Assembly (NCBI GenBank): GCA_964016885.1
Contig: OZ024741.1
Location: 339,078,001-339,142,000, forward strand
DNA from: Eledone cirrhosa
Lineage: Eukaryota
Direction of reading: 5' to 3'
Length of the DNA: 64,000 nucleotides
Shown here: piece by piece, positions 1 to 45,986 of the stretch
Position numbering within the stretch: the first letter of the stretch is position 1
How the letters are laid out: the number at the start of each line of letters is the position of its first letter
Translations under genes and position numbers: made by a program
The notes under the pieces: generated by a model
Databases searched by the model: none
What the model saw: the letters and a program-made list of their open reading frames with translations, nothing else
Told to the model about the DNA's origin: nothing

Positions 1-3000
1 TAATATAGCAGAGTTAGGGTGGGGGTGAGGTAATACAGTTATAATATAGCAGATGTAGGGGGGGGGGTGAGGCGATACAGTTATAATATGACAGAGATAG
101 GGTGGGGTGAGGTAATACAGTTATAATATGACAGAGATAGGGTGGGGTGAGGTAATACAGTTATAATATGGCAGAGGTAGGGTGGGGCTGAGGCAATACA
201 GTTATAATATGACAGAGATAGGATGGGGGTGAGGTAATACAGTTATAATATAGCAGATGTAGGATGGGGGTGAGGTAATATAGTTATAATATAGCAGATG
301 TAGGGTGGGGGTGAGGCGATACAGTTATAATATGACAGAGATAGGGTGGGGTGAGGTAATACAGTTATAATATGACAGAGGTAGGGTTGGGGTGAGGTAA
401 TACAGTTATAATATGACAGAGGTAGGGTTGGGGTGAGGTAATACAGTTATAATATGACAGAGGTAGGGTGGGGGTGAGGTAATACAGTTATAATATGACA
501 GAGGTAGGGTGGGGGTGAGGTAATACAGTTATAATATGACAGAGGTAGGGTGGGGGTGAGGTAATACAGTTATAATATGACAGAGATAGGGTGGGGTGAG
601 GTAATACAGTTATAATATGACAGAGGTAGGGTTGGGGTGAGGTAATACAGTTATAATATGACAGAGATAGGGTGGGGTGAGGTAATACAGTTATAATATG
701 ACAGAGATAGGGTGGGGTGAGGTAATACAGTTATAATATGGCAGAGGTAGGGTGGGGGTGAGGTAATACAGTTATAATATGACAGAGATAGGGTGGGGGT
801 GAGGTAATACAGTTATAATATGACAGAGGTAGGGTGGGGGTGAGGTAATACAGTTATAATATGACAGAGATAGGGTGGGGGTGAGGTAATACAGTTATAA
901 TATGGCAGAGGTAGGGTGGGGGTGAGGTAATACAGTTATAATATGACAGAGATAGGGTGGGGTGAGGTAATACAGTTATAATATGACAGAGGTAGGGTGG
1001 GGGTGAGGTAATACAGTTATAATATGACAGAGATAGGGTGGGGGTGAGGTAATACAGTTATAATATGACAGAGATAGGGTGGGGGTGAGGTAATACAGTT
1101 ATAATATGGCAGAGGTAGGGTGGGGGTGAGGTAATACAGTTATATTATGACAGAGATAGGGTGGGTGTGAGGTAATACAGTTATAATATGGCAGAGGTAG
1201 GGTGGGGGTGAGGTAATACAGTTATAATATGGCAGAGATTGGGTGGGGTGAGGTAATACAGTTATAATATGACAGAGATAGGGTGGGGTGAGGTAATACA
1301 GTTATAATATGACAGAGATAGGGTGGGGGTGAGGTAATACAGTTATAATATGGCAGAGGTAGGGTGGGGGTGAGGTAATACAGTTATAATATGACAGAGA
1401 TAGGGTGGGGGTGAGGTAATACAGTTATAATATGGCAGAGTTAGGGTGGGGTGAGGTAATACAGTTATAATATGGCAGAGGTAGGGTGGGGGTGAGGTAA
1501 TACAGTTATAATATGGCAGAGATAGGGTGGGGGTGAGGTAATACAGTTATAATATAGCAGATGTAGGGTGGGGGTGAGGCGATACAGTTATAATATGACA
1601 GAGATAGGGTGGGGTGAGGTAATACAGTTATAATATGGCAGAGGTAGGGTGGGGTGAGGTAATACAGTTATAATATGACAGAGATAGGGTGGGGGTGAGG
1701 TAATACAGTTATAATATGGCAGAGGTAGGGTGGGGTGAGGTAATACAGTTATAATATGGCAGAGGTAGGGTGGGGCTGAGGCAATACAGTTATAATATGA
1801 CAGAGGTAGGGTGGGGTGAGGTAATACAGTTATAATATGGCAGAGGTAGGGTGGGGGTGAGGTAATACAGTTATAATATGGCAGAGTTAGGGTGGGGTGA
1901 GGTAATACAGTTATAATATGGCAGAGGTAGGGTGGGGGTGAGGTAATACAGTTATAATATGACAGAGATAGGGTGGGGGTGAGGTAATACAGTTATAATA
2001 TAGCAGATGTAGGGTGGGGGTGAGGCGATACAGTTATAATATGACAGAGATAGGGTGGGGTGAGGTAATACAGTTATAATATGGCAGAGGTAGGGTGGGG
2101 TGAGGTAATACAGTTATAATATGACAGAGATAGGGTGGGGGTGAGGTAATACAGTTATAATATGGCAGAGGTAGGGTGGGGTGAGGTAATACAGTTATAA
2201 TATGGCAGAGGTAGGGTGGGGCTGAGGCAATACAGTTATAATATGACAGAGGTAGGGTGGGGTGAGGTAATACAGTTATAATATTGCAGAGGTAGGGTGG
2301 GGGTGAGGTAATACAGTTATAATATGGCAGAGGTAGGGTGGGGGTGAGGTAATACAGTTATAATATGACAGAGGTAGGGTTGGGGTGAGGTAATACAGTT
2401 ATAATATGGCAGAGATAGGGTGGGGTGAGGTAATACAGTTATAATATGGCAGAGATAGGGTGGGGTGAGGTAATACAGTTATAATATGGCAGAGGTAGGG
2501 TGGGGGTGAGGTAATACAGTTATAATATGACAGAGGTAGGGTGGGGGTGAGGTAATACAGTTATAATATGGCAGAGGTAGGGTGGGGGTGAGGTAATACA
2601 GTTATAATATGACAGAGGTAGGGTGGGGGTGAGGTAATACAGTTATAATATGGCAGAGATAGGGTGGGGGTGAGGTAATACAGTTATAATATGGCAGAGA
2701 TAGGGTGGGGTGAGGTAATACAGTTATAATATGGCAGAGGTAGGGTGGGGTGAGGTAATACAGTTATAATATGGCAGAGGTAGGGTGGGGGTGAGGTAAT
2801 ACAGTTATAATATGGCAGAGGTAGGGTGGGGTGAGGTAATACAGTTATAATATGGCAGAGGTAGGGTGGGGGTGAGGTAATACAGTTATAATATGGCAGA
2901 GGTAGGGTGGGGGTGAGGTAATACAGTTATAATATGGCAGAGGTAGGGTGGGTTTGAGGTAATACAGTTATAATATGGCAGAGGTAGGGTGGGGTGAGGT

Positions 3001-3862
3001 AATACAGTTATAATATGGCAGAGGTAGGGTGGGGGTGAGGTAATACAGTTATAATATGGCAGAGGTAGGGTGGGGTGAGGTAATACAGTTATAATATGGC
3101 AGAGGTAGGGTGGGGTGAGGTAATACAGTTATAATATGACAGAGATAGGGTGGGGTGAGGTAATACAGTTATAATATGACAGAGATAGGGTGGGGTGAGG
3201 TAATACAGTTATAATATGGCAGAGGTAGGGTGGGGGTGAGGTAATACAGTTATAATATTGCAGAGGTAGGGTGGGGTGAGGTAATACAGTTATAATATGG
3301 CAGAGGTAGGGTGGGGTGAGGTAATACAGTTATAATATGACAGAGGTAGGGTGGGGTGAGGTAATACAGTTATAATATGACAGAGATAGGGTGGGGTAAG
3401 GTAATACAGTTATAATATGGCAGAGGTAGGGTGGGGTGAGGTAATACAGTTATAATATGACAGAGGTAGGGTGGGGTGAGGTAATACAGTTATAATATGG
3501 CAGAGGTAGGGTGGGGGTGAGGTAATACAGTTATAATATGGCAGAGGTAGGGTGGGGTGAGGTAATACAGTTATAATATGACAGAGGTAGGGTGGGGTGA
3601 GGTAATACAGTTATAATATGACAGAGATAGGGTGGGGTGAGGTAATACAGTTATAATATGGCAGAGGTAGGGTGGGGTGAGGTAATACAGTTATAATATG
3701 ACAGAGATAGGGTGGGGTGAGGTAATACAGTTATAATATGGCAGAGGTAGGGTGGGGTGAGGTAATACAGTTATAATATGACAGAGGTAGGGTGGGGTGA
3801 GGTAATACAGTTATAATATGACAGAGGTAGGGTGGGGTGAGGTAATACAGTTATAATATGGC
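1..3862 (+). repeat. 40-41 bp G-rich minisatellite, ~95 copies, runs off the left edge
   Basis: Unit GAGGTAATACAGTTATAATATG(A/G)CAGAG(A/G)TAGGGTGGG(G)GT repeated head-to-tail with few variants. Confidence 0.98.
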
Positions 3863-5073: not shown

Positions 5074-5326
5074 CATATATATAAACATATATATATATAT
5101 ATATATATATATTTCGTTTCTGAATTTGTTTAGCAAGATTCTTTATCTGAAATCGTGTGTTGAAACCGATATTGTTATACTTTGGGAGGGTCATGTTGCC
5201 AATAAGAAACACACGCACCAGTAACTTTCACTTCAGTTTATTATATATTTATAAATTTACAAATTTATAAATTTATAAATTTCTGGTTGGTTGGTTGGTT
5301 CCACCACCAGATAGTTGTTTATATAT

Positions 5327-5371
5327 AGTCATAGTCCTTTCGTCACACACTCTGTGACCTCTTCAGTGACT
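5327..5371 (-). ncRNA. Hammerhead ribozyme (inverted-arm copy of the Penelope HHR)
   Basis: Reverse complement of 8455-8499. Confidence 0.8.
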
Positions 5372-5968
5372 GGGGATTCCTTTCTTTGTTTCTGTGCCTC
5401 TCCTTTGTTCTGTCCTACGCCATTTTGTTTCTGTGTGTGTGTTGTGTGCTCAGTCTGCGTATGCGCCACATCCGGGTGTCTGTGTGTGTTTATGTTCATT
5501 TATCTATTTGTTTATTTATTTATTTATTTACATGTTACTGGTTGGTTGTTTGTTCTATGTGTGTGTGTGTTTTCATTTTGTCCTTAATTGTAAGTTGTGA
5601 TGTTGTTGTTCCACTCATATTTTCTATTTAATTTTGGTTGTAATTCTTTTATGTTTATTGCCTCTGTAATTTGTCTAAACATTGCATCTTTTCTGTGTGT
5701 AGATTCTATTTTTATTTCTATGTTCTCTAATTTACCCTTGTGTTCTATCTTAGCATGTTGGTAGAGTACAGATGATTCTTTATTATCTTGAAGGTCTCGC
5801 CAGTGTTCATTTATCCGTTCCCCTATACTACGAGCTGTCTCACCTATGTACACTATATTTTTGTCTCTACATTGTCATTCAGTACATCTTACACTACATT
5901 TCTAGTTTTACAGTTAATATGGGGGCTTATTTTACAGGTTATACATTTCTTATCTATACATGAGGGTC

Positions 5969-8242
5969 GATGAACAAACAGAAGCACAATTTAGTATAGC
6001 TAGATCCGAACTTAGAAATATTATAGAACAGTATAGCAAGAAGCATAATAGAATGGAGGCCCAGCAACTGGGAGAAAAATCTGCAAATGGCTTGCGTAAG
6101 CTCATGCAGCGCTCATGTAATGGAGAGATAGCATGCTTTCCAACAGACAAGTCTGGCAGAATGTCGGTCGACAGCCTGCCAAACTACATCCAGGCAATGC
6201 AACCCACATCACTAACACAAGAGAGGTAACACCACAGGAGCATGAGGATAGAGAAAAAGCCCTCAATGCCCATATGGTGATGTGGACGAATATAATGCAG
6301 CCCAACAAAAGGACTGCCAACAACTTCCAGGCCTGGAACAATGACGTGCCGGCGTTGTATGGGCTTCGAAAAGACCATAAAACGGGCTGTGAGACCCTGT
6401 CACGGGACCACCAACACGGCCAGTCTGTCTAGCTAACATTGCTAGTAACTACAGACTGTCCTACTTCCTCTCCCTGATCATACGCCCCATCATTGAAATG
6501 TCCCCAGATGTATGTGACAGCACGGAAGACCACCTCAGCAGAATCGGCGTGAGTAACCGATCTGGGGACCTAACAAACTGCATAATAGGCAGTATGGATG
6601 TTGTGTCCCTGTATCCATCTATTGACGTGGATTTTGCTGTGGAGAAATGCGTAGAAATGATCAGTGAGAGCAAGGTTGAGTTCCGTGTGATTGATACCAG
6701 TGAGCTGGGACTTCTACTTAAGCTTACCTATAATAATAGTTACCTAGACACATATGACCTTAGCAACCTGTGCCCTACAAGACCAGCAAGAGGCAGACCA
6801 CCTACCATTACCTCAATGGCCAAGAAAACCCACACAGATAGATGGAACGGGTGGACCAGAGCCATACGGACACCCGAAAACCACGATGAACTGAAGAAAA
6901 TGATTGCACATGCGGTAGGGGCCAGCATAAAACTAACCCTTAAGGAACATATGTTCAAATTTAATGGAAAAACATATGCCCAAGAGGAAGGAGCAGCCAT
7001 TGGTATTAGCATTGCAGGCGACATAGCTAACTTATTCATGGTATGGTGGGACAGTAGACTTAAACTTAAACTTAAAGAACAATTAGAAGACCCCTTAACC
7101 CTGATAATGTACTCCCGCTACGTAGATGATATAAACATCGTAGTTAAGACACCCCCACTAGAGAACAGTCAGGAACTAGAGAAAAACACAATGGAAAGCA
7201 TTCAGCAAATAGCAAACTCCATCCACCAGAGCATTAGAGTTACTATAGACTACCCAAGTAGACACCCCAACCATCGATTACCTGTACTAGACACAGAGCT
7301 CTGGTTAGATACAATTAACAACAAAAAACAAATCCTCCATTCCCATTATGCCAAACCCATGACTTCCAAACATCTGATCCACCGAAACTCGGCCATTTCG
7401 GACTATACCAAAATCAACATACTGATTGCGGATTTGGTACGGGTGATGAGAAATGTGTCCCGCATGTGTAACCCCGAAGAACTAGAGAGACACATACAAC
7501 ACTTCATCCACCGTATGCAGTTCTCTGGCTACAATCAGAGAGATAGAATCAGAGTGTATAGAGGAGCCAGAACCAAATGGGAAAAAATGGTAAATAATGA
7601 CATAAATGGGACCTGCCCCTTGTATAGGAGCAAATTTTGGAATAGAATAGAAAGAACTAGGAACAAGGCTAATAGAATAAACTCATGGTATGATAGCAAT
7701 AAATACCAGAGTGTAATGTTCATCGATACAACCCCTAGAGGCGAACTAGCCTACAAATTTAGAAGGGCCCTAAATAAACATAAACTCAATATTAAGATAG
7801 TAGAAAGACCAGGTACCTCTGTAAAAACATTTATTAGCAAGACATACCCTTTTCAAAGACCCTCATGTATAGATAAGAAATGTATAACCTGTAAAATAAG
7901 CCCCCATATTAACTGTAAAACTAGAAATGTAGTGTAAGATGTACTGAATGACAATGTAGAGACAAAAATATAGTGTACATAGGTGAGACAGCTCGTAGTA
8001 TAGGGGAACGGATAAATGAACACTGGCGAGACCTTCAAGATAATAAAGAATCATCTGTACTCTACCAACATGCTAAGATAGAACACAAGGGTAAATTAGA
8101 GAACATAGAAATAAAAATAGAATCTACACACAGAAAAGATGCAATGTTTAGACAAATTACAGAGGCAATAAACATAAAAGAATTACAACCAAAATTAAAT
8201 AGAAAATATGAGTGGAACAACAACATCACAACTTACAATTAA
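5969..8242 (+). pseudogene. Penelope-like RT + Cys linker + GIY-YIG endonuclease, frameshifted
   Basis: RT motifs TDKSG, LYGLRKDHK, PTRPVC, GSMDVVSLYPSI, QEEGAAIG, YSRYVDD, LPVLD. Linker CIDKKCITC..NCKTRNVV; endonuclease YIGETAR..ERINEH..LYQH..RQITEAINI..PKLN. Frameshifts near 6205, 6393 and 7935. Confidence 0.93.
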
Positions 8243-8454
8243 GGACAAAATGAAAACACACACACACATAGAACAAACAACCAACCAGTAACATGTAAAT
8301 AAATAAATAAATAAACAAATAGATAAATGAACATAAACACACACAGACACCCGGATGTGGCGCATACGCAGACTGAGCACACAACACACACACAGAAACA
8401 AAATGGCGTAGGACAGAACAAAGGAGAGGCACAGAAACAAAGAAAGGAATCCCC

Positions 8455-8499
8455 AGTCACTGAAGAGGTCACAGAGTGTGTGACGAAAGGACTATGACT
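8455..8499 (+). ncRNA. Type I minimal hammerhead ribozyme in the Penelope 3' region
   Basis: AGTCA-CTGAAGA-g-GTCACA gagtg TGTGAC-GAAA-GGAC-TA-TGACT: stem I AGTCA/TGACT, 6-bp stem II, minimal stem III. Confidence 0.82.
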
Positions 8500-8657
8500 A
8501 TATATAAACAACTATCTGGTGGTGGAACCAACCAACCAACCAGAAATTTATAAATTTATAAATTTGTAAATTTATAAATATATAATAAACTGAAGTGAAA
8601 GTTACTGGTGCGTGTGTTTCTTATTGGCAACATGACCCTCCCAAAGTATAACAATAT

Positions 8658-8686
8658 ATATATATATATATACATACATATATATA

Positions 8687-8756
<70 letters not shown>

Positions 8757-8797
8757 AATATATATAAATATATACATATATATATATAAATATATAC

Positions 8798-8828
<31 letters not shown>

Positions 8829-8931
8829 AATATATATAAATATATACATATATATATATAAATATATACATATATATAAACATATATAAATATATACATA
8901 TATATACATATATATAAATATATACATATAT

Positions 8932-8988
<57 letters not shown>

Positions 8989-9091
8989 TACATATATATA
9001 TATACATACATGTATATACATACATACATATATATATATACATACATGTATATACATACATACATATATATATATACATACATATATATAT

Positions 9092-9122
<31 letters not shown>

Positions 9123-9192
9123 AATAATATATATATATACATATATATCTATATATACATACACATATATATATATACATATATATATATAT
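8658..9192. repeat. (TA)n-rich microsatellite
   Basis: Seen directly; separates the Penelope element from the retrozyme array. Confidence 0.95.
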
Positions 9193-9358
9193 ATTAGAAA
9201 TTGGAATAAATGCTCTGAAATAGCGATATATATATGAATATAGACATAGAATATTCGAAAATATTCTGTATGTTTATAATAAACATTTTGAAGACCTAAT
9301 CGCTATAGAATAGAATACGTCACGTATTACAATTAGATTCTCGATAAAAGCAAGGGAA

Positions 9359-9401
9359 GTAATCTACGCGTTTCATTCTTGTTAGAATTCATCAGGACTA
9401 C
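9359..9401 (-). ncRNA. Type I hammerhead ribozyme, inverted copy
   Basis: Reverse complement of 9717-9759. Confidence 0.9.
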
Positions 9402-9716
9402 ATATCCAGTGCTTTTATCGAGCTAACAAGAATGAAACGCGTAGATTACTTCCCTTGCTTTTATCGAGAATCTAATTGTAATACGTGACGTATTCTATTC
9501 TATAGCGATTAGGTCTTCAAAATGTTTATTATAAACATACAGAATATTTTCGAATATTCTATGTCTATATTCATATATATATCGCTATTTCAGAGCATTT
9601 ATTCCAATTTCTAATTTCTGCCGGACCGGCAACCGCTCTTTCAAACCAGTTCCTGTACACAGCTAAGTATTCTATAAGTCTCTAGCTGTGTCATTCTCGA
9701 TAAAAGCACTGGATAT

Positions 9717-9759
9717 GTAGTCCTGATGAATTCTAACAAGAATGAAACGCGTAGATTAC
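9717..9759 (+). ncRNA. Type I hammerhead ribozyme (first of 7 complete copies, repeating every 310 bp to 11577-11619)
   Basis: GTAGTC-CTGATGA-ATTC taacaa GAAT-GAAA-CGCG-TA-GATTAC; predicted cleavage after GUA at 9753. Stem I is extended by a 16-bp helix, 9693-9708 with 9766-9781. Confidence 0.93.
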
Positions 9760-11867
9760 TTCCCTTGCTTTTATCGAGAATCTAATTGTAATACGTGACG
9801 TATTCTATTCTATAGCGATTAGGTCTTCAAAATGTTTATTATAAACATACAGAATATTTTCGAATATTCTATGTCTATATTCATATATATATCGCTATTT
9901 CAGAGCATTTATTCCAATTTCTAATTTCTGCCGGACCGGCAACCGCTCTTTCAAACCAGTTCCTGTACACAGCTAAGTATTCTATAAGTCTCTAGCTGTG
10001 TCATTCTCGATAAAAGCACTGGATATGTAGTCCTGATGAATTCTAACAAGAATGAAACGCGTAGATTACTTCCCTTGCTTTTATCGAGAATCTAATTGTA
10101 ATACGTGACGTATTCTATTCTATAGCGATTAGGTCTTCAAAATGTTTATTATAAACATACAGAATATTTTCGAATATTCTATGTCTATATTCATATATAT
10201 ATCGCTATTTCAGAGCATTTATTCCAATTTCTAATTTCTGCCGGACCGGCAACCGCTCTTTCAAACCAGTTCCTGTACACAGCTAAGTATTCTATAAGTC
10301 TCTAGCTGTGTCATTCTCGATAAAAGCACTGGATATGTAGTCCTGATGAATTCTAACAAGAATGAAACGCGTAGATTACTTCCCTTGCTTTTATCGAGAA
10401 TCTAATTGTAATACGTGACGTATTCTATTCTATAGCGATTAGGTCTTCAAAATGTTTATTATAAACATACAGAATATTTTCGAATATTCTATGTCTATAT
10501 TCATATATATATCGCTATTTCAGAGCATTTATTCCAATTTCTAATTTCTGCCGGACCGGCAACCGCTCTTTCAAACCAGTTCCTGTACACAGCTAAGTAT
10601 TCTATAAGTCTCTAGCTGTGTCATTCTCGATAAAAGCACTGGATATGTAGTCCTGATGAATTCTAACAAGAATGAAACGCGTAGATTACTTCCCTTGCTT
10701 TTATCGAGAATCTAATTGTAATACGTGACGTATTCTATTCTATAGCGATTAGGTCTTCAAAATGTTTATTATAAACATACAGAATATTTTCGAATATTCT
10801 ATGTCTATATTCATATATATATCGCTATTTCAGAGCATTTATTCCAATTTCTAATTTCTGCCGGACCGGCAACCGCTCTTTCAAACCAGTTCCTGTACAC
10901 AGCTAAGTATTCTATAAGTCTCTAGCTGTGTCATTCTCGATAAAAGCACTGGATATGTAGTCCTGATGAATTCTAACAAGAATGAAACGCGTAGATTACT
11001 TCCCTTGCTTTTATCGAGAATCTAATTGTAATACGTGACGTATTCTATTCTATAGCGATTAGGTCTTCAAAATGTTTATTATAAACATACAGAATATTTT
11101 CGAATATTCTATGTCTATATTCATATATATATCGCTATTTCAGAGCATTTATTCCAATTTCTAATTTCTGCCGGACCGGCAACCGCTCTTTCAAACCAGT
11201 TCCTGTACACAGCTAAGTATTCTATAAGTCTCTAGCTGTGTCATTCTCGATAAAAGCACTGGATATGTAGTCCTGATGAATTCTAACAAGAATGAAACGC
11301 GTAGATTACTTCCCTTGCTTTTATCGAGAATCTAATTGTAATACGTGACGTATTCTATTCTATAGCGATTAGGTCTTCAAAATGTTTATTATAAACATAC
11401 AGAATATTTTCGAATATTCTATGTCTATATTCATATATATATCGCTATTTCAGAGCATTTATTCCAATTTCTAATTTCTGCCGGACCGGCAACCGCTCTT
11501 TCAAACCAGTTCCTGTACACAGCTAAGTATTCTATAAGTCTCTAGCTGTGTCATTCTCGATAAAAGCACTGGATATGTAGTCCTGATGAATTCTAACAAG
11601 AATGAAACGCGTAGATTACTTCCCTTGCTTTTATCGAGAATCTAATTGTAATACGTGACGTATTCTATTCTATAGCGATTAGGTCTTCAAAATGTTTATT
11701 ATAAACATACAGAATATTTTCGAATATTCTATGTCTATATTCATATATATATATATATATATGTGTGTATAATATCTTGCATGTGTGCGTTTGTGTAGCT
11801 TTTGTGTATAAGTGTGCTGTATCTGTATGAATTGCACTGTATTTGTGTGCATTCTATATTTGCCCTA

Positions 11868-15715: not shown

Positions 15716-15718
<3 letters not shown>

Positions 15719-16468
15719 GTATATATAGTGTATTTTGCAATACACTGTATGCTTAATTAAAAGCATTTTGAAGACTTTACACTATTGTTTTAAAGTAGTG
15801 ACTATGTCACTTACTTCTATTTTCAGCAACAAGAGGAGATAAGCTGACAGAGCTCTGTTTTGTACTGTTGGTACTTATCAAAGCCTAGCACTCCTCCTGT
15901 TTGCTGAAAATTATGAATGTTGGATTCTTATAGAATTCCAGTAATAATCAGGAACTGATTATACAGAGCGGTTGCCGGCCCAGCAAAAATGTTCAGCAAA
16001 CAGGAGTGCTAGGCTTTTATAAGTACCAACAGTACGAAACAGAGCCCTGTCAGCTTATCTCCCCTTGTTTGCTGATCGAAGTAAGTGACATAGTCATTAT
16101 TTTAAAACAATAGCGTAAGGTCTTCAAAATGCTTTTAATTAAGCATACAGTGTATTGCAAAATACACTATATATACATTCATATATATATCGCTATTTCA
16201 GAGCACCAATTCTAATTTTCGATTTTTGCTGGACCGGCAACCGCTCTGTATAATCAGTTCCTGATTATTAATGGAATTCTATAAGAATCCAACATTCATA
16301 ATTTTCAGCAAACAGGAGAAGTGCAAGGCTTTGATAAGTACCAACAGTACGAAAGAGAGCTCTATCAGCTTATCTCCACTTGTTTGCTGAAAATAGAAGT
16401 AAATGACATATATACACTCTATATACATTCATATATATATCGCTATTTCAGAGCACCAATTCTAATTT
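15716..16468 (+). mobile_element. Retrozyme sister family (~312-bp monomer): inverted partial copy plus ~1.5 direct monomers
   Basis: Shares TATATATATCGCTATTTCAGAGCA, GGACCGGCAACCGCTCT and GGTCTTCAAAATG with the 310-bp array. TTCAGCAAACAGGAG recurs at 15992 and 16304. Three HHR-like motifs. Confidence 0.85.
16326..16371 (+). ncRNA. Hammerhead variant with UUGAUAA core (U3-A8); other copies at 16011-16056 (+) and 15841-15886 (-)
   Basis: Consensus of the 3 copies: AGGCT-TTGATAA-GTAC caaca GTAC-GAAA-CAGAGCTCTG-TC-AGCTT. Confidence 0.78.
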
Positions 16469-16665
16469 TATATATATATATATATATAGATATAGATATA
16501 ATATATATATATATACATAGATATAAAATATATATATATATATATACATAACCCTTGCAAGCATGGAAAAGCGGATGTAAAATGATTATGATGATATATA
16601 TATATATACATAGATTTAATATATATATATATACATAGATTTAATATATATATATATATACATAG

Positions 16666-16918: not shown

Positions 16919-17038
16919 AATATGGTTTTATAAATATAGTTTCCATTTATTAATATCGTATATATATATATATATATAAGTTGGAATAGAATGAAACGAA
17001 ATTTCATTTCTCACTCTTAGTACGGCACTTACTTAAAT

Positions 17039-17091
17039 GTAAGTATGTATGTATACGTACATACATATATGTATACAGACGTACAGTAGCA

Positions 17092-17181
<90 letters not shown>

Positions 17182-17801
17182 CATACAGGTACACATATAT
17201 ATATGTACGTATCAGTTTAGCGGACGTTTATTATAACGCTCGCTTTGTCCGTTTGTAAACAAACTGACAGCCTGATTTATGCCGTACGGTGTTAAGGCAA
17301 CCTCGTCACCTTTTTGTTCAACACTGACACAGGAACGATGTACTAGTTTCAAGCTTGTTAGCTATCGTCAGCACCGTATACCCTTCTGCCAGATGGTTGA
17401 ACGTTCGAAAGTATATACTTTCCTTATGAAAATTAACGGCTGAGCAGCCTAATTTGCATATCGAGTGAGTTCAGTCGGCCAGGCGCACCGAAAACGATAA
17501 GTTGGAAAAGAATGAAGGGTATACGGTGCTGACGATAGCTAACAAGCTTGAAACGAGTACATCGTTCCTGTGTCAGTGTTGAACAAAAAGGTGACGTGGT
17601 TGCCTTAACACCGTACGGCATAAATCAGGCTGTCAGTTTGTTTACAAACGGACAAAGCGAGCGTTATAATAAACGTCCGCTAAACTGATACGTACATATA
17701 TATATGTGTACCTGTATGTATATATATATATATATATATATATGCATCCATGTTACTGTACGTCTGTATACATATATGTATGTACGTATACATACATACT
17801 T

Positions 17802-25479: not shown

Positions 25480-25480
<1 letters not shown>
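24174..25480 (+). repeat. (GTT)n-based degenerate trinucleotide array
   Basis: Seen directly. Confidence 0.95.
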
Positions 25481-25522
<42 letters not shown>

Positions 25523-25681
25523 CAGCAGTAGTAGTAGTAGTAGTGGTAGTGGTAGTGGTAGTAGTAGTAGTAGTAGTAGCAGCAGCAGAAGCAGTAGTAG
25601 TAGTAGTAGTAGTAGGAGCAGTATAGTAGTACTGATAGCAGCAGTAGTAGTAGTAGTAGTAGTAGCAGTAGCAGGAGCAGC

Positions 25682-25716
<35 letters not shown>

Positions 25717-25771
25717 CAGCAGTAGTAGTAGTAGTAGCAGCAGCAGTAGCAGTAGTAGTAGTAGTAGCAGC

Positions 25772-25806
<35 letters not shown>

Positions 25807-25828
25807 CAGTAGTAGTAGTAGTAGCAGC

Positions 25829-25863
<35 letters not shown>

Positions 25864-25891
25864 TGGTAGTAGTAGTAGTAGTAGTAATAGT

Positions 25892-25929
<38 letters not shown>

Positions 25930-26031
25930 TAGTAGTAGCAGTATAGTAGTACTAATAGCAGCAGCAGTAGTAGTAGTAGTAGCAGTAGCAGTAGCAGTAG
26001 TAGTAGTAGTAGTAGTAGCAACAGAAGCAGC

Positions 26032-26066
<35 letters not shown>

Positions 26067-26094
26067 CAGCAGTAGTAGCAGTAGTAGTAGTAGT

Positions 26095-26153
<59 letters not shown>

Positions 26154-26224
26154 CAGCAGCAGTAGTAGTAGTAGTAATAGTAGCAATAGCAGCAGCAGTA
26201 GTAGTAGTAGTAGTGGGTAGTAGT

Positions 26225-26258
<34 letters not shown>

Positions 26259-26279
26259 ATAGTAGTAGTAGTAGCAGTG

Positions 26280-26342
<63 letters not shown>

Positions 26343-26714
26343 ATAGCAGCAGTAGTAGTAGTAGTAGTAGTGGTAGTAGTAGTAATAATAATAGCAGCAG
26401 TAGTAGTAATAGTAGTAGCAGCAGTAGTAGTAGTAGTAGTAGCAGCAGCACTAGTAGTGGTAGTAGTAGTAGTAGTAGTAGTAGTAGCAGTAGTAGTAGT
26501 AGTAGCAGCAGTAGTAGTAGTATTAGTGGTAGTGGTAGTAGTAGTAGTAGTAATAATAGCAGCAGTAGTAGTAATAGTAGTAGCAGCAGTAGTAGTAGTA
26601 GTAGTAGCAGCAGTAGCAGCACTAGTAGTAGTAGTAGTAGTAGTAGTAGTAGCAATAGTAGTAGTAGTAGCAGCAGTAGTAGTAGTAGTATTAGTGGTAG
26701 TGGTAGTGGTAGTG

Positions 26715-26754
<40 letters not shown>

Positions 26755-26775
26755 CTGCAGCAGCAGCAGCAGCAC

Positions 26776-26811
<36 letters not shown>

Positions 26812-27101
26812 CAGCAGCAGTAGTAGTAGTAGTGGGTAGTAGAAGCAGTAGCAGCAGTAGCAGCAGCAGCAGTAGTAGTAGTAGTAGTAGCAGCAGCAGT
26901 AGTAGTAGTAGTAGTAGTAGAAGTAGAAGCAGCAGTAGCAGAAGTAGTAGTAGTAGCAGCAGTAGCAGCAGTAGTATTAGTAGTAGTAGCAGCAGTAGTA
27001 GTAGCAGTGGTAGTAGTAGTAGTAGTAGTAGTAGTAGCAGTAGCAGCAGTAGTATTAGTAGTAGTAGTAGTAGCAGCAGCAGTAGTAGCAGTAGTAGTAG
27101 C

Positions 27102-27139
<38 letters not shown>

Positions 27140-27159
27140 CAGTAGTAGTAGTAGTAGCT

Positions 27160-27190
<31 letters not shown>

Positions 27191-27225
27191 CAGCAGTAGT
27201 AGTAGTATTAGTGGTAGTGGTAGTG

Positions 27226-27258
<33 letters not shown>

Positions 27259-27294
27259 ATAGCAGCAGTAGTACTAGTAGTATTAGTGGTAGTG

Positions 27295-27334
<40 letters not shown>

Positions 27335-27401
27335 CAGCAGCAGTAGTAGTAGTAGTAGCAGTAGCAGTAGCAGTAGTAGTAGTAGTAGCAACAGTAGCAG
27401 C

Positions 27402-27436
<35 letters not shown>

Positions 27437-27488
27437 CAGCAGTAGTAGTAGTAGTAGCAGCAGTAGTAGCAGTAGTAGTCGTAGTAGC

Positions 27489-27535
<47 letters not shown>

Positions 27536-27615
27536 CAGCAGCAGTAGTAGTAGTAGTAGTAATAGTAGCAATAGCAGCAGCAGCAGTAGTAGTAGTAGTG
27601 GGTAGTAGTAGCAGT

Positions 27616-27653
<38 letters not shown>

Positions 27654-27774
27654 TAGTAGCAGCAGCAGTAGTAGTAGTAGTAGTAGAAGTAGCAGCAGCA
27701 GTAGCAGTAGTAGTAGTAGTAGTAGCAGCAGTAGCAGCAGTAGTATTAGTAGTAGTAGCAGCAGTAGTAGTAGC

Positions 27775-27820
<46 letters not shown>

Positions 27821-27998
27821 ATAGCAGCAGTAGTAGTAGTAGTAGTGGTAGTAGTAGTAGTAATAATAGCAGCAGTAGTAGTAATAGTAGTAGCAGCAGT
27901 AGTAGTAGTAGTAGCAGCAGTAGTAGTAGAATTGTATTAGTGGTAGTGGTAGTGGTAGTAGTAGTAGTAGTAGTAGTAGTAGCATCAGTAGTAGTAGC

Positions 27999-28042
<44 letters not shown>

Positions 28043-28060
28043 CAGCAGCAGCAGCAGCAC

Positions 28061-28105
<45 letters not shown>

Positions 28106-28393
28106 CAGTAGTAGTAGTAGTGGGTAGTAGTAGCAGTAGCAGCAGTAGCAGCAGTAGTAGTAGTAGTAGTAGTAGCAGCAGCAGTAGTAGTAGTAGTAGT
28201 AGAAGTAGCAGCAGCAGTAGCAGAAGTATTAGTAGTAGTAGCAGCAGTAGTAGTAGCAGAAGTAGTAGTAGTAGCAGCAGTAGCAGCAGTAGTATTAGTA
28301 GTAGTAGCAGCAGTAGTAGTAGCAGAAGTAGTAGTAGTAGCAGCAGTAGCAGCAGTAGTATTAGTAGTAGTAGCAGCAGTAGTAGTAGCAGTG

Positions 28394-28424
<31 letters not shown>

Positions 28425-28488
28425 CAGTAGCAGCAGTAGTATTAGTAGTAGTAGTAGTAGCAGCAGCAGTAGTAGCAGTAGTAGTAGC

Positions 28489-28538
<50 letters not shown>

Positions 28539-28540
28539 CT

Positions 28541-28583
<43 letters not shown>

Positions 28584-28681
28584 CAGCAGTAGTAGTAGTA
28601 TTAGTGGTAGTGGTAGTGGTAGTAGTAGTAGTAGTAGTAGTAGTAATAGCAGCAGTAGTAGTAGTAGTATTAGTGGTAGTG

Positions 28682-28718
<37 letters not shown>

Positions 28719-28782
28719 CAGCAGCAGTAGTAGTAGTAGTAGTAGCAGTAGCAGTAGTAGTAGTAGTAGCAACAGTAGCAGC

Positions 28783-28829
<47 letters not shown>

Positions 28830-28890
28830 CAGCAGTAGTAGTAGTAGTAGCAGCAGTAGCAGCAGTAGTAGCAGTAGTAGTAGTAGTAGC

Positions 28891-28928
<38 letters not shown>

Positions 28929-29001
28929 CAGCAGCAGTAGTAGTAGTAGTAGTAATAGTAGCAATAGCAGCAGCAGTAGTAGTAGTAGTGGGTAGTAGTA
29001 G

Positions 29002-29046
<45 letters not shown>

Positions 29047-29136
29047 TAGTAGCAGCAGTAGTAGTAGTAGTAGTAGAAGTAGCAGCAGCAGTAGCAGTAG
29101 TAGTAGTAGTAGTAGCAGCAGTAGCAGCAGTAGTAT

Positions 29137-29168
<32 letters not shown>

Positions 29169-29195
29169 ATAGCAGCAGTAGTAGTAGTAGCAGTG

Positions 29196-29243
<48 letters not shown>

Positions 29244-29395
29244 ATAGCAGCAGTAGTAGTAGTAGCAGTGGTAGTAGTAGTAATAGTAGTAGCAGCAGTA
29301 GTAGTAGTAGTAGCAGCAGTAGTAGTAGTAGTATTAGTGGTAGTGATAGTGGTAGTAGTAGTAGTAGTAGTAGTAGTAGCAGCAGTAGTAGTAGC

Positions 29396-29447
<52 letters not shown>

Positions 29448-29569
29448 ATAGCAGCAGTAGTAGTAGTAGTAGTAGCAGAGCAGCAGCACTAGTAGTAGTA
29501 GTAGTAGTAGTAGCAGTAGTAGTAGTAGTAGCAGCAGTAGTAGTAGTAGTATTAGTGGTAGTGGTAGTG

Positions 29570-29606
<37 letters not shown>

Positions 29607-29805
29607 AACTAGCAGCAGCAGTAGTAGTAGTAGTATCAGTAGTAGCAGTAGTAGTAGTAGTAGCAGCAGCAGTAGTAGTAGTAGTAGCAGTAGTAGCAGT
29701 AGTAGTATTAGTGGTAGTGGTAGTGGTAGTAGTAGTAGCAGTAGCAGCAGTAGTATTAGTAGTAGTAGTAGTAGTAGCAGCAGCAGTAGTAGCAGTAGTA
29801 GTAGC

Positions 29806-29849
<44 letters not shown>

Positions 29850-29917
29850 CAGTAGTAGCAGTAGTAGTAGTACTAGTAGCAGTAGTAGCAGTAGTAGTAT
29901 TAGTGGTAGTGGTAGTG

Positions 29918-29951
<34 letters not shown>

Positions 29952-30667
29952 CAGTAGTAGTAGCAGTAGTAGCAGTAGTAGTAGTAGTAGCAGCAGCAGT
30001 AGTAGTAGTAGTAGCAGTAGTAGTAGTAGTAGTAGTAGTAGCAGCAGCAGTAGTAGTAGTAGTAGCAGTAGTAGCAGTAGTAGTATTAGTGGTAGTGGTA
30101 GTGGTAGTAGTAGTAGTAGTAGTAGTAGTAGAACTAGCAGCAGCAGTAGTAGTAGTAGTAGTAGCAGTAGCAGTAGTAGCAGTAGTAGTAGCAGTAGTAG
30201 TAGTAGTAGTAGTAGTAGCAGTAGTAGTAGTAGTAGTAGTAGCAGCAGTAGTAGTAGTAGTAGTAGTAGTAGCAGTAGTAGCAGTAGTAGTAGTAGTAGC
30301 AGCAGCAGTAGTATTAGTATTAGTAGTAGTAGCAGTAGCAGCAGTAGTATTAGTAGTAGTAGTAGTAGTAGCAGCAGCAGTAGTAGCAGTAGTAGTAGCA
30401 GTAGTAGTAGTAGTAGTAGTATCAGTAGTAGTAGTAGTAGTAGCAGCAGCAGTAGTAGTAGTAGTAGCAGTAGTAGCAGTAGTAGTAGTAGCTGTAGTAG
30501 TAGCAGTAGTAGCAGTAGTAGTAGCAGCAGCAGCAGTAGTAGCAGTAGTAGTAGCAGTAGTAGTAGTAGTAGTAGTAGTATCAGTAGTAGCAGTAGTAGT
30601 AGTAGTAGCAGCAGCAGTAGTAGTAGTAGTAGCAGTAGTTGCAGTAGTAGTAGTAGTGGGTAGTAGT

Positions 30668-30726
<59 letters not shown>

Positions 30727-30784
30727 CAGCAGCAGTAGTATTAGTAGTAGTAGTAGTAGTAGCAGTAGTAGCAGTAGTAGTAGC

Positions 30785-30828
<44 letters not shown>

Positions 30829-30875
30829 CAGTAGTAGTAGCAGCAGCAGTAGTAGTAGTAGTAGCAGTAGTAGTA
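25481..30875 (+). repeat. 5.4-kb (AGT/AGC)n array with higher-order duplication
   Basis: Rare marker GTGGGTAGT recurs at ~26213, 26832, 27598, 28120, 28988 and 30656. Confidence 0.95.
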
Positions 30876-37765: not shown

Positions 37766-40035
37766 GTTTAACGTCCGTGTTCCACGCTTGCATGGGTTTG
37801 GACGGGGGTTTTCCCACTTGAGGCAAGAGTGGTTATCTTGCTCGCATAGGACTATCTGGCAGGTTTTCTACAGCTGGATGCCCTTCCTAACACCAACCAC
37901 ATTTACAGTGTGGGGCTGGGAGGTTTTTACCGTGTTGCCTACACGGCCACATTACAGCGTGAACTGTGTGTTTTTTTATCGTGACACCTACACGATCTCA
38001 TTTGTTTCGGCCTGGATGTTGTGGCACCAACATAACTTTACATTGAAAGGGGCGGTGTGGATGGGGTGGGGGTGGTGGGACGGGGGTGTATTTTGTTAGA
38101 GATGCCTACTGACTGTAGTAGGTTTTACTTCGTATTTAGGTAAGGCGGGTCTTCTCTATTACTGAGTACCGCCAAAGGTCTCGGTCCAGTGACATTGTCT
38201 TGGTGAGGTGTAAGTGTGTGAGGTCGGAATTTATCAGCTCGTCCCAGGTTTTTCTGGGTCTGCCTATTCCGTGGCTACCGTCTATCTTTATTGCCCTGCA
38301 TGCGCATCACGTGACCATACCAACGTAGCCTTCTCTCGAGTAAACAACATCTGATCCCTCTTATTTCTAATTTTTTCTTTAGTTCGTTTATGCTTTGCCG
38401 TTCACGTATATTACTATTACACATCCAGCGGAGCATGCAAGCTTCGTTTCTCTCTAGTCTGCGTATATCCTCTGCACACAATGCCCAGGTCTCACTGCCA
38501 TGCCACATTGCTGTTCGTATGCAGGCATCGTACAACCTGCCTTTCATTTTTAGGGAGAACCCTTTAGCGGCTAATAGCGGTATAAGCTCTCTGAACTTTT
38601 TCCATCCAGTTCTGACTCTAGCTACTGTACTTTCAGAGCACCCTCCACCACTGCTGATTTTGTCACCCAGGTAACGGAAGCTGTCCACTATTTCTATAGA
38701 ACCCTCTGCGCAGTTGAAAGAGCTAGTATTTTGTGGGCACTTGCTGCTACTTATTGCCCCAGAGCACCGGCCACATGTAAAATCTATGTTCTTAGTTAGC
38801 TTACCTGTGATCCCACTACATCTTTTATGCACCCATACTTTCCATTTGGGACACAAAATGGAGTTTCTACCTACGCCTTTTCTACACACTGAGCATGGCC
38901 ACTTCCCGGAGGGGACCGCCGCCTTATTTTCTTTCTTACAAACTAGAACTTTAGTCTTAGCCAGGTTAATTTTAAGGCCTTTTGATTCTAGGCCGTGCTT
39001 CCATGTTTGGAATTTCTTCTCTAGCTCGGCCAATGATTCAGCTATGAGCGTTAGATCATCTGCGTATAGGAGTTCCCATGGGCAGCCGGTCTTGAACTCC
39101 ACTGTTATAGCCTGGAGGGCAATAATAAATAGTAGGGGGCTAAGAACAGAGCCCTGATGAACACCAACTTTTACGCTAAACTCTTCACTATATTCGTTGT
39201 TAATTCTAACCTTGCTGACTGTTTCTTTATACATGGCTTGTATAGCTCTCACAAGCCATTCATCAACACCTAGTTTTCTGAGAGCCCACCAGATAATGGG
39301 GCATGGGATTCTGTCAAAGGCTTTCTCCAAGTCAACAAAAGCTAAGTATAGGGGTTTACTTTTAGCTAGGTACTTCTCCTGTAGTTGTCGTACAATGAAA
39401 AGAGCGCCTGTGGTACTTTTACCTGACACAAACCCGAACTGCATTTCATCTAGCTAAATTCGCTCACTGATTAGTTGTGCTATTACTTTTTCTGTGACCT
39501 TCATGACCTGGTCAATTAATTTAATGCCTCTATAGTTTCCCCTATCTAGGGAATCTCCTTTACCCTTGTAGCAGTTAACGATGCTGCTGCTATGCCAGTC
39601 CGCGGTACAACCCCATTCAGTATGACTTGGTTTACTATCCGGGTGACCATAGTGTGTCCTACTGTTCCAGATGCTTTCAGCATTTCAGCAACTATTTCCG
39701 AAGGCCCAGCCACCTTACCCGTCTTCATATCTTTGATTGCCTTACTTATTATACTACCTTCGACTAACACTGCTGGTCCCTCTATTGGGTCGATGTGGGG
39801 GAGACTGTCTTTCTCCCATTTATTCTCCTCATTTAGTAGCCTTTCATAGTGACACTTCCAAGCTACCTTCTTATCAGCGTCGGTGATGGCAAGTACGCCG
39901 TCATCATTAAGTACACACTTCTCCCCGACAATATCACGGTTTTCCTTGACACATTGCCTAGCAATCCTGAACACCTCACGTTTTTGGTCCTCGCGTTGTA
40001 GAACATGCTTGAACTTTCTTTCCTCTGCTTCCCTT

Positions 40036-40037
<2 letters not shown>
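37733..40037 (-). mobile_element. RTE LINE, 5'-truncated, frameshifted
   Basis: ORFs 39546-39974 and 38275-39444 (FVDLEKAFD, GVHQGSVLSP, LYADD, RYLG); (GAT)n tail; (TA)n flanks. Confidence 0.95.
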
Positions 40038-40087
<50 letters not shown>

Positions 40088-40221
40088 CATATTTACAATG
40101 ATTTTTTCTGTTAGATTGGGTTGCTTGCGTTGTACCTGCTTATACAATGTTACTGAACACAGTTTCTAAATTCTATCTACATTACATCTTGTAATGGTAA
40201 TCACTCATATTTGTGTGTGTA

Positions 40222-41531: not shown

Positions 41532-41789
41532 ATATATATATATATATACATATATATATATGTAAGTATGTATGTATACGTACATACATATATGTATACA
41601 GACGTACAGTAGCATGTATATATATATATATATATACATACAGGCACACATATATATATGCACGTATCAGTTTACCGAACATTTATTATAATGTTCGCTT
41701 TGTTCGTTTGTAAACAAACGAACAGCCTGATTTACGCCGTACAGTGTTTAGGCAACCACGTCACCTTTTTGTTCAACACTGACACAGGA

Positions 41790-41832
41790 ACGATGTACTA
41801 GTTTCAAGCTTGTTAGCTATCGTCAGCACCGT
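41790..41832 (-). ncRNA. Type I hammerhead (17523 family)
   Basis: Minus strand: ACGGTG-CTGACGA-TAGCTAACAAGCTT-GAAA-CTAG-TA-CATCGT. Confidence 0.85.
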
Positions 41833-42519
41833 ATACTTTTCTGCCAGATGGGGCTCACATTGTTTTTTCATATATGAGTGAAATTTGGTTGGTTGATGCA
41901 GTCATGTGAATAAGCACATCCACTTTCGCGCCAGTTTGTGTTTGAGTTTCTTTTTACTTAAAAAAGTGGCTCAGAAAAGTTTTTCTTATAAATGTAATTT
42001 GATTGGTTATAAATGATATTATGACTGTCATGTGAACAAGTACATTAAATTTTGAACCCCTTTTTGGGAATTTTCTTGTAGCCATTTAGAGAATTTTGTG
42101 CCAAACAAAAGATAATGGTCAAGAAAAAAGGGATGAGGAGAATTGTTCTGGTTCAGTGAGTATGGCTGATGTGCTGAGGTGTCAAAATTCAGACTTTCTA
42201 TTGAAATAAAGAAAGTAGAGATATGTATTTTTATTTGTGTGCTGGTGTGTGTGTGTGTAGGAAAATGATTCTATTAGTAGAAATGGGGGAGGGAGTTATG
42301 TGTGTATGGGTGTTATATGTGTGTGTGTATGTGTGGGAGTATGGTTAGCATGTTAAGATGGAGAGAATATATATTTGTGTGTGTGTGTGTGTAGGAAAAT
42401 GATTCCATTAGTAGAACTAGGGGAGGGAGTTGTGTGTGTGTGGGGGGTATGGTTAGCATGTTAAGATGTTAGAGTATTAACATATGTTAAGGCTTATTTA
42501 ACTCTCGCTTTTATAGAAG

Positions 42520-44756: not shown

Positions 44757-45953
44757 AGGGAAATGGCCATGCTCAGTTTGTAGGAAAGGAGTAGGCAGAA
44801 ATTCCATTTTATGTTCCAAATGAAAAGTATGTGTACATAAAAGATGTAGTGGGATCACAGGTAAACTATCTAAGAACGCAGACTTTATATGTGGCTGATG
44901 TTCAGGTGCAATAAGTAGCAAGTGTCCACAGGATACTAGCTCCTTCTATTGCCCAGATGGTTCTATAGAAATAGTGGACACTTTCCGTTACCTAGGTAAC
45001 GAAATCAGCAATGGTGGAGGGTGTTCTGAAAGTACAGTAGCTAGAGTCAGAACAGGATGGAAAAAGTTCAGAGAGCTTATACCACTATTGGCCACTAAAG
45101 GTTTCTCTCTAAAAATAAAAGGCAGATTGTATGATGCCTGTATACGAACAGCAATGCTACATGGCAGTGAGACATGGGCATTACGTGCAGAGGACCTGTG
45201 TAGACTGGAAAGGAACGAAGCATGCATGCTCCATTGGATGTGTAATAGTAATATACATGAACGGCAAGGCATAAATGAACTAAGTGAGAAATTAAAAATA
45301 AGAGGGATCAGATGCTGTTTACTTGAGAGAAGACTACGTTGGTATGGTCATGTGATGCGCATGAAAGACGACAGCTGTATAAAAAAGTGCAGGGCGATCA
45401 AAATTGATGGTAGTTACGGAGTAGGTAGAACCAGAAAAACCTATGACGATCTGATAAATTTCGACCTTACACACTTGCGCCTCTCTAAGACAATGTCACT
45501 GGACCAAGATCTTTGGTGCTACGCAGTAATACAGAAGACCCGCCTTGCCTATGTACAAAGCGAAACCTACAGTCAGTAGGCACCTCTTAACCAATATACA
45601 CCCCAATCCACTACCCCTACCCTATCCTCCCACTCCCACCAACATCACCCTCTCTCTGTAAAGTTGGTACCACAACATCCTGTCCAAATAAATGAGATAA
45701 TGAGATCAAGATCGTGTAGGTGTCACAACCAAAAAACACACAGTCCATGCTGTAATGTGGTTGTGTAGGTAACACGGTAAAAAGTTCTCACTTCCACACT
45801 GTAAATGTGGTTGGTGTTAGGAAGAGCATCTAGCTGTAGAAAACCTGCCAGATAGTCCTATATGAGCGAGACACGGTCACCCGACCAATCTTGCCTCAAG
45901 TGGGACAACTCCCGTCTAACCCATGCTAGCGTGGAAGATGGACGTTAAACGAA

Positions 45954-45986
<33 letters not shown>
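44757..45986 (+). mobile_element. RTE LINE 3' fragment
   Basis: Begins at GKWPC; ORF 44974-45579; (GAT)n tail. Confidence 0.93.

Follow-up and report, generated by a model that had tools for sequence, protein, structure and literature searches.

The window, which is the whole stretch of DNA analyzed here, comprises 64,000 nucleotides of Eledone cirrhosa (assembly GCA_964016885.1, contig OZ024741.1, positions 339,078,001 to 339,142,000 of the forward strand), and it contains a two-armed tandem array of a 310-bp unit that carries a hammerhead ribozyme motif. To judge from its sequence, the family to which this array belongs is a metazoan non-long terminal repeat (non-LTR) retrozyme, a known class of elements. 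It appears, with a probability that we put at about 0.7, that its loci arise by twin-primed rolling-circle reverse transcription of one 310-nt monomer circle by a reverse transcriptase (RT) of the Penelope type. The evidence comes from the ends of the insertions, the variants carried by their two arms, and the pattern of substitutions in the ribozyme.

The forward arm of the array (9423-11752, plus strand) consists of 7.5 identical 310-bp units, for which Tandem Repeats Finder (TRF) gave a period of 310 with 100% matches, and no mismatch was found among the seven full units. Ahead of it lies an inverted arm (9193-9422, minus strand), which is an exact 230-nt copy of 0.74 unit. The array is flanked on each side by (TA)n, and the target tract on the left (8654-9192) is common to the array and a neighboring Penelope-like element (PLE). 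Unit positions are numbered here from the cleavage site, position 1 being 9754 of the window. On this scale, the outer 3′ end of the inverted arm adjoins (TA)n at position 172, within a class of ends designated site B, and its inner end at position 253 is joined bluntly to the inner end of the forward arm at position 290. The 3′ end of the forward arm falls in the AU tract of the unit (site A), and the region between the two sites (positions 130-172, or 9883-9925 on the plus strand) is referred to as the tail. The original prediction, made from the letters of the window, had described identical 310-bp units set in (TA)n and preceded by an inverted partial copy, and all of these features were confirmed; the span that it gave (9193-11750) was correct with regard to the arms, but the right end lies at 11743-11752 and is ambiguous inside a TA run. 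In run X1, which may be the source of the present assembly, the unit occurs at very high depth, with both common alleles and with TA loose ends at 9892. An assembly artefact, a possibility raised together with the prediction, is ruled out by this depth in X1 and by the genome-wide matches to the unit.

The first intact 43-nt type I hammerhead is located at 9717-9759 (plus strand) and recurs every 310 nt up to 11577-11619 (n = 0 to 6), while another complete copy of the motif is found in the inverted arm at 9359-9401 (minus strand), in agreement with the seven intact ribozymes and one inverted ribozyme that had been predicted. The core is CUGAUGA/GAAA, and the predicted cut falls after 9753. 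The other two structural features of the prediction were also found, namely a stem I with a 16-bp extension (9693-9781, plus strand), in which unit positions 250-265 pair with 13-28, and a palindromic stem III, ACGCGU. Stem III of a single unit has two base pairs and a two-base loop, and a 6-bp intermolecular duplex is predicted between two units. Since the stem III of a lone monomer cannot close and two units give 6 bp, both the cleavage of multimers and the stability of the circle would follow. Among the sampled loci, no fixed variant lies inside the palindrome. The predicted fold of the unit is better than that of 100 out of 100 shuffled sequences (z = -4.73), and no hammerhead core is present on the antisense strand of the unit. 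As had been claimed, the units have no substantial open reading frame (ORF), the longest frame being 59 codons when the unit is read as a circle; the unit likewise lacks the RT plus GIY-YIG ORF that characterizes an autonomous PLE. An Rfam scan of the window, which had been proposed as a check, gave no hit at the gathering score and a weak match to Hammerhead_HH9 (23 bits versus a cut-off of 52, E 0.03).

The genome of the species (3.0 Gb) was searched with exact patterns to obtain copy counts. The 43-nt hammerhead gave 2,528 matches compared with 0 for a reversed control, and therefore the motif is not a chance occurrence. An internal 28-mer of the unit gave 16,522 matches, corresponding to about 5 Mb, and end motifs adjoining TA were found 1,241 times for site A and 1,006 times for site B, so that at least 1,241 insertion ends are present; the number of loci is estimated at about 1,500. 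The unit has a GC content of about 0.34, and its length of 310 bp is inside the range of the retrozyme criterion (150-450 bp, GC <50%). It is also non-coding, dispersed, and without LTR structure (primer-binding site and polypurine tract were not searched separately). Among 90 loci, 37 haplotypes were distinguished, the majority units of the loci differing by a mean of 3.1 changes (about 1%), while within loci, units depart from their majority by 0.057%. By these values the family is very young. The identification as a retrozyme, the young insertion, and the dispersed copies of the original prediction are all upheld by these data.

The anatomy of the insertions was mapped at 105 loci, 10 of which had been picked by the hammerhead and 95 by an end motif next to TA. 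Two head-to-head arms were present at 91 loci, one arm at 13, and none at one. In 90 of the 91 two-arm loci, one arm ends at site A (unit positions 125-139) and the other at site B (165-172). The B end lies at 165 in 73 of these 90 loci and at 166-172 in 17, and the A junction is mostly at or before position 130. The resulting tail of 26-42 nt has a modal value that fits the 30-40-bp tail of PLEs. Each arm contains at least two units in 60 of the 91 two-arm loci; the arms have median lengths of 3.2 and 4.1 units, respectively, and reach at most 20 and 45 units. In samples taken blind to the ends, 8 of 9 and 4 of 5 loci were two-armed, and in the first 218 Mb of C1, a divergent A end was found within 16 kb of 56 of the 76 B ends, compared with one divergent A-A pair and no B-B pair. 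TA occurs on both flanks in 77 of the 91 two-arm loci, a figure biased by the way in which the loci were selected, and also at most ends of the end-blind loci; the insertion ends thus lie in (TA)n, where a target-site duplication cannot be read. In 46 of 69 informative ends at site A, a T of the target stands in place of the terminal C131, which suggests that the TA run of the target likely anneals over the AU tract of the RNA, while at site B only 1-3 nt match the target.

The inner ends of the arms are scattered over the unit (chi-square p 0.08), with 4 of 182 lying within 5 nt of the cut versus 5.9 expected. The 88 simple centers comprise 45 with an overlap, 14 blunt, and 29 with inserts, and microhomology of at least 2 nt is seen in 31 of the 59 insert-free centers compared with 18% at random; two centers overlap by 16-17 nt. 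The combination of two ends, inverted arms, and a (TA)n target is the signature of a PLE-type insertion. Such a signature had been proposed from the window and is now found in nearly all two-arm loci, whereas the permuted start points that had also been expected were not found, the outer ends being fixed at two sites and only the inner ends scattered.

With regard to the template, 71 of 74 loci have matching alleles in both arms at every one of the 31 haplotype sites, compared with a mean of 7.7 and a maximum of 19 in 10,000 shuffled trials. Half of the 34 fixed variants (17) were found in one sampled locus alone. Rare variants are all or none per locus: 28 of the 29 genome-wide units with 119G are in two loci, both of which are fully fixed, and 45 of the 46 with 88T are in four loci. 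Where the arms overlap in register (261 units, 88 loci), 74 of 84 non-fixed sites are changed in one arm only, as expected for changes that took place after insertion. In addition, 944 passes over the cleavage junction contain no unit-specific indel; within 3 nt of the junction there are four sporadic substitution events, and seven loci are fixed for one or the other of two one-base insertions at position 3. The template thus appears to be a single unit, and a ligated monomer circle would explain both the haplotype and the junction data. It is favored because a linear multimer leaves the fixed private variants unexplained and a cut monomer leaves the clean junctions unexplained. A single-unit, circle-like template, as envisaged in the original prediction, is therefore supported by the agreement of the arms, the rare variants, and the junctions. 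In three other runs with three organism labels (X2, X3, and X6; compared over window 9600-9909), the unit was recovered as one closed 340-nt contig each, with at most one difference from the minority haplotype of the window, while X1 shows many variants. Such closed contigs are no evidence of a circle, because a tandem array gives the same contig, and all four runs consist of assembled contigs, which are uninformative on RNA ends or strand.

The substitutions themselves point to a function of the RNA. After 6 of 134 sporadic events identical to known haplotype alleles had been dropped from the pairing test, pairing was found to be preserved by 7 of 8 fixed substitutions in stems and core versus 2 of 26 sporadic ones (Fisher p = 5e-5). 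All seven are G-U/A-U swaps that are valid only on the sense strand, and the sole exception is a U-U at the first pair of stem II. Changes in the core comprise 0 fixed and 6 sporadic ones. On this evidence, selection acts on the ribozyme in the form of its sense-strand RNA. The window also contains, at 15716-16470, a copy of an older family (family 2) that is homologous to that of the array; it has a unit of about 316 bp, a U3-A8 core, a 12-nt palindromic stem III region, and the same head-to-head two-end architecture, and its motif has 1,124 matches genome-wide. Family 2 and two rarer relatives align with the family of the array (family 1). Across these families, two-sided change is observed in 20 of 29 pairs, including C3-G8 to U3-A8, and 93.6% of aligned cells pair compared with 34-47% when the alignment is slid. 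Eight rows have C-G as the core 3-8 pair and six have U-A, and two linker hairpins covary as well. Where the tail begins, all 9 rows aligned there have the same 18-nt sequence, and this invariant stretch is a putative RT initiation element.

The proposed mechanism can be outlined as follows. Briefly, the array would be transcribed, and two adjacent units would form a dimeric hammerhead via the ACGCGU palindrome and be cut after GUA. The monomer would be closed into a circle by a host ligase, and a lone circle would stay closed because the dimer cannot form from it. A PLE protein may then bind near the 18-nt tail motif and nick both strands of (TA)n, so that synthesis is primed by one 3′-OH at site A, in the AU tract, and by the other at site B, some 35 nt downstream. 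Both complementary DNAs (cDNAs) would circle the template, the number of turns varying (median 3-4, maximum 45), before halting at scattered phases, and their ends would be joined via microhomology or short fill-ins to yield the central inversion. For a minority of loci, the template was likely longer or was switched during copying, and once inserted, long arrays undergo reshuffling at the DNA level. As to the enzyme, we lean slightly toward an RT dimer of a PLE that starts at two adjacent sites of the circle, in which case a natural circular RNA (circRNA) would be written into the genome and the 18-nt motif would be the RT signal. If true, this would explain how animal retrozymes integrate, a step that has been missing, and would give PLE biochemistry a minimal substrate to work with.

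Several observations weigh against this mechanism or parts of it, and some of them also speak for a different template, namely long uncleaved linear multimers that a PLE RT would copy twice from two start sites, the arrays being homogenized by youth and unequal crossing-over. In-register shared changes occur at 10 of the 84 overlap sites, in 4 of 88 loci, and mosaics of this kind favor a linear multimer. L061 and L161 share one change each, in the outermost unit, and L096 is a mosaic in one arm. In L104 (G000:C1:136718380-136726310), both arms change haplotype after two units from the outer ends, which a lone monomer circle cannot produce. To account for these in-register mosaics, either the template must have been longer, or both arms must have switched template jointly, or one arm must have been converted by the other. 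Repeated variants in long arrays are also in favor of the linear multimer. In L155 and L156 (G000:C1:97461000-97476999), a variant pattern of a 45-unit arm recurs at 27 units, along with other scattered repeats, and repeated variants are seen in L050/L051. The repeats of L155 reflect either an assembly effect or events within the long array itself, namely duplication or conversion, and together with those of L050/L051 they indicate that DNA-level turnover also spreads variants in long arrays. The search for donors gave little help: the lone outside unit with 119G sits on another background (a negative result), and that with 88T has a matching background, which is the commonest one and hence a weak test. 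It was also reported that PAc inserts in vitro without hammerhead cleavage, uncleaved RNA being the dominant substrate and cleavage dispensable (PMC11167929), and that 1 of 9 retrozyme dimers of Xenopus was cleaved in vitro (a 2026 preprint). Further points on this side are that 13 of the 105 loci are single-armed, that the counts of ends and targets are inflated because 95 of the 105 loci were picked by an end motif beside TA, that the commonest allele (71 loci) has the U-U mismatch at the first stem II pair, and that the covariation counts come from related sequences with few independent events and include a misaligned row (L201). Moreover, blastn of the unit, inspection of PLE-like fragment ends, a hammerhead census, and a search for distant homologues did not reveal, among the examined loci, a PLE whose tail matches and that could thus act as helper.

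The clean junctions and scattered inner ends fit a linear multimer equally well, but a one-unit bottleneck is required, because a new variant cannot otherwise reach every unit of both inverted arms, and 17 of the 34 variants fixed in this way are private to a single sampled locus. The genome-wide all-or-none distribution of 119G and 88T, the 74 of 84 overlap variants that are unshared, and the selection of an intact core among transmitted variants also speak against it, and we consider the linear multimer unlikely. A bottleneck of one unit would result just as well if the template were a cleaved linear monomer from whose 5′ end the RT jumps repeatedly to the same or another monomer; this would explain the haplotype switch of L104, and one arm (that of L173) stops exactly at unit position 1. 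End-to-end jumps of non-LTR RTs usually gain or lose bases, however, and no unit-specific indel was found in the 944 junction passes. There is also no excess of inner ends at the cut, and arms copied from random monomers would contain mixed haplotypes, which is rarely the case; a template of this kind is accordingly quite improbable. Least probable of all is that the arrays are satellites formed at the DNA level, through extrachromosomal circles, fold-back synthesis, or unequal exchange, with the hammerhead as a relic. The turnover visible in L155 and the two centers with a 16-17-nt overlap would suit such an origin, and local expansion by unequal crossover is favored in the 2026 preprint. On the other hand, the outer ends are fixed at two sites with one of each per locus, the variants that the arms share line up when counted from the outer ends and are not mirrored about the center, an arrangement that also rules out fold-back about the center, and the transmitted changes preserve pairing only on the sense strand. 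An origin as a DNA satellite is already largely refuted by the fixed ends and the sense-strand pairing. Rolling-circle copying of a monomer circle remains the preferred reading.

The neighboring PLE of the window (5111-8657, plus strand) is 5′-truncated and its frame is broken. It has an RT-like frame (RVT_1 21.3 bits, below the cut-off) and, in another frame, a GIY-YIG-like stretch preceded by a CX4CXXC motif of the Neptune/Nematis type, as well as an 806-nt inverted arm, a tail of ~57 nt on its left end, and its own, different hammerhead at 8460 (plus strand) and 5366 (minus strand). The closest named relative of its protein is from Octopus vulgaris (69%). A first look yielded 33,609 candidates of its family, and 84 that were scored are 96-100% identical; open frames exceed 1,200 codons, with the start codon preceding the tail. 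The 32 ends seen in 30 loci fall at two sites about 57 nt apart (17 at the first and 15 at the second), and one of each was present in 4 of 4 loci in which both ends were seen. It is doubtful that this family supplies RT and endonuclease to the retrozyme. It is very abundant and young, has long open frames, and shares the (TA)n target and the one-of-each ends, but its tail of ~57 nt differs from the 26-42 nt of the retrozyme, no similarity to the unit was found beyond TA runs and 10-11-nt words (best E 0.33), and several other PLE-like families occupy the same tracts, one of them adjoining the retrozyme locus L111. The original prediction had attributed the array to a Penelope RT and had regarded its inverted arm as the same signature as in the neighboring copy. 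The two-end architecture is indeed common to both in a general way, but a special link is not borne out in view of the tails, the lack of meaningful nucleotide similarity, and the broken copy. The adjacency of array and neighbor is explained by the shared (TA)n target.

The unit was also found to have no similarity to the terminal regions of the neighbor or to the other PLE ends examined. Outside retrozymes, the tail motif was not met among about 80 of 91 variant-context matches that were read, a non-exhaustive set, all of which belong to retrozyme families. Hydra-like ORF fragments in L244 and L253 were rejected as a helper, since (TA)n separates them from the tail motif. A second kind of PLE-like ORF, with a C-terminal endonuclease, which we take to be Hydra-like, occurs in L151, L099, L032, L110, and L244, and a hammerhead-like core (CAGAAGA) lies upstream of the start codon in L151. 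L111, L040, L167, and L164 contain a sister PLE family of the neighbor, with about 66% protein identity, its own hammerhead, and a similar ~57-nt tail.

Metazoan non-LTR retrozymes have been described in coral, mussel, axolotl, and newt (satellite 2), where circles were shown and their reverse transcription by PLEs or long interspersed nuclear elements (LINEs) was proposed (Cervera & de la Pena 2020, PMC7229834). The family described here resembles them in its 150-450-bp, low-GC tandem units with a type I hammerhead in each, the absence of an ORF, and a weak stem III suited to dimeric cleavage, and the axolotl retrozyme provides a precedent for multimer cleavage and a stable circle (PMC7229834). 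In the main text of that study, however, integration is a hypothesis and the words "inverted" and "rolling" are absent, whereas the insertions described here have paired multimeric arms that share a single haplotype within each locus, as well as a PLE tail; conversely, circles were shown in those systems and are proposed here from genomic patterns. In the 2026 preprint, which deals mostly with vertebrates, co-occurrence and similarity of pseudo-LTRs (pLTRs) were taken to indicate a dependence of retrozymes on PLEs. In the present family, no helper with pLTR similarity was identified, and the available text of the preprint contains neither "tail" nor "junction" and no analysis of ends, whereas the end signature is explicit in the present data. 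It was also stated in a review that such repeats show no conserved motif indicating a helper (PMC7761336), and a further review of retrozymes is available (PMC11722881).

PLE insertions are recognized by a tail of 30-40 bp on one side together with a truncated copy in inverted orientation (Craig et al. 2021, PMC8557442). In vitro work on PAc/Poseidon has traced this tail to reverse transcription that starts at two neighboring internal sites, with extension of both strands of the target (Frangieh et al. 2024, PMC11167929). The retrozyme shares the tail at one end, the inverted truncated copy, and the AT-rich or microsatellite targets of these elements (PMC8557442, PMC11167929). Unlike PAc/Poseidon, it is non-coding, and both of its arms are multimers of one unit. 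The AU tract that contains its site A is complementary to the target, but PAc initiates at a site that has no such homology (PMC11167929). The non-autonomous Chlamys PLEs such as MRC1 are similar to it in being non-coding PLE parasites with multicopy head-to-tail insertions, but their 3′ ends are similar to those of their autonomous partners, and the MRC1 clade consists of N-terminal-endonuclease PLEs without canonical hammerheads; the passage concerned invokes no circle (PMC8557442). In the literature searched, supplements excluded, no retrozyme insertions were described as twin multimeric arms with a PLE tail, and no locus-fixed variants were used as evidence for a circular template; model figure S9 of PMC7229834 and the tables of the 2026 preprint could bear on this novelty. 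The reintegration of retrozymes, in respect of both enzyme and template, is still treated as a hypothesis in the available texts of PMC7229834, PMC7761336, and the 2026 preprint. The present family is young (0.06% within loci) and large (about 5 Mb) enough to expose the footprints of insertion, and these footprints (PLE tail, twin arms, one-unit bottleneck, and conserved tail motif) make the ideas of a circular template and a PLE helper directly testable. The unit also offers a 310-nt substrate for working out the tandem and inverted structures of PLEs.

Some other elements are present in the window. A third hammerhead-bearing element is found at 17020-17800 and 41570-41850, with cores at 17371 (minus strand), 17529 (plus strand), and 41826 (minus strand); it is head-to-head in (TA)n, occurs in tandem in L203, and contains an octamer-like sequence, ATGCAAAT, near 17452, which may be a promoter element of the small nuclear RNA (snRNA) type. 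More hammerhead-like cores lie at 51729 (minus strand), 51918 (plus strand), and 49177 (minus strand), in short head-to-head elements between (TA)n runs, and the genome holds many short head-to-head hammerhead families. LINE fragments, which we assume to be RTE-like, are located at 38275-40139, 44899-48213, and 49537-51216, one of them with a 559-codon stop-to-stop frame. Long simple satellites were also detected at 1-3862, 25480-30875, and 58196-62662, and they comprise a 41-bp repeat (95 copies), (GTA) (1,798 copies), and a 9-bp CAA-rich repeat (500 copies).

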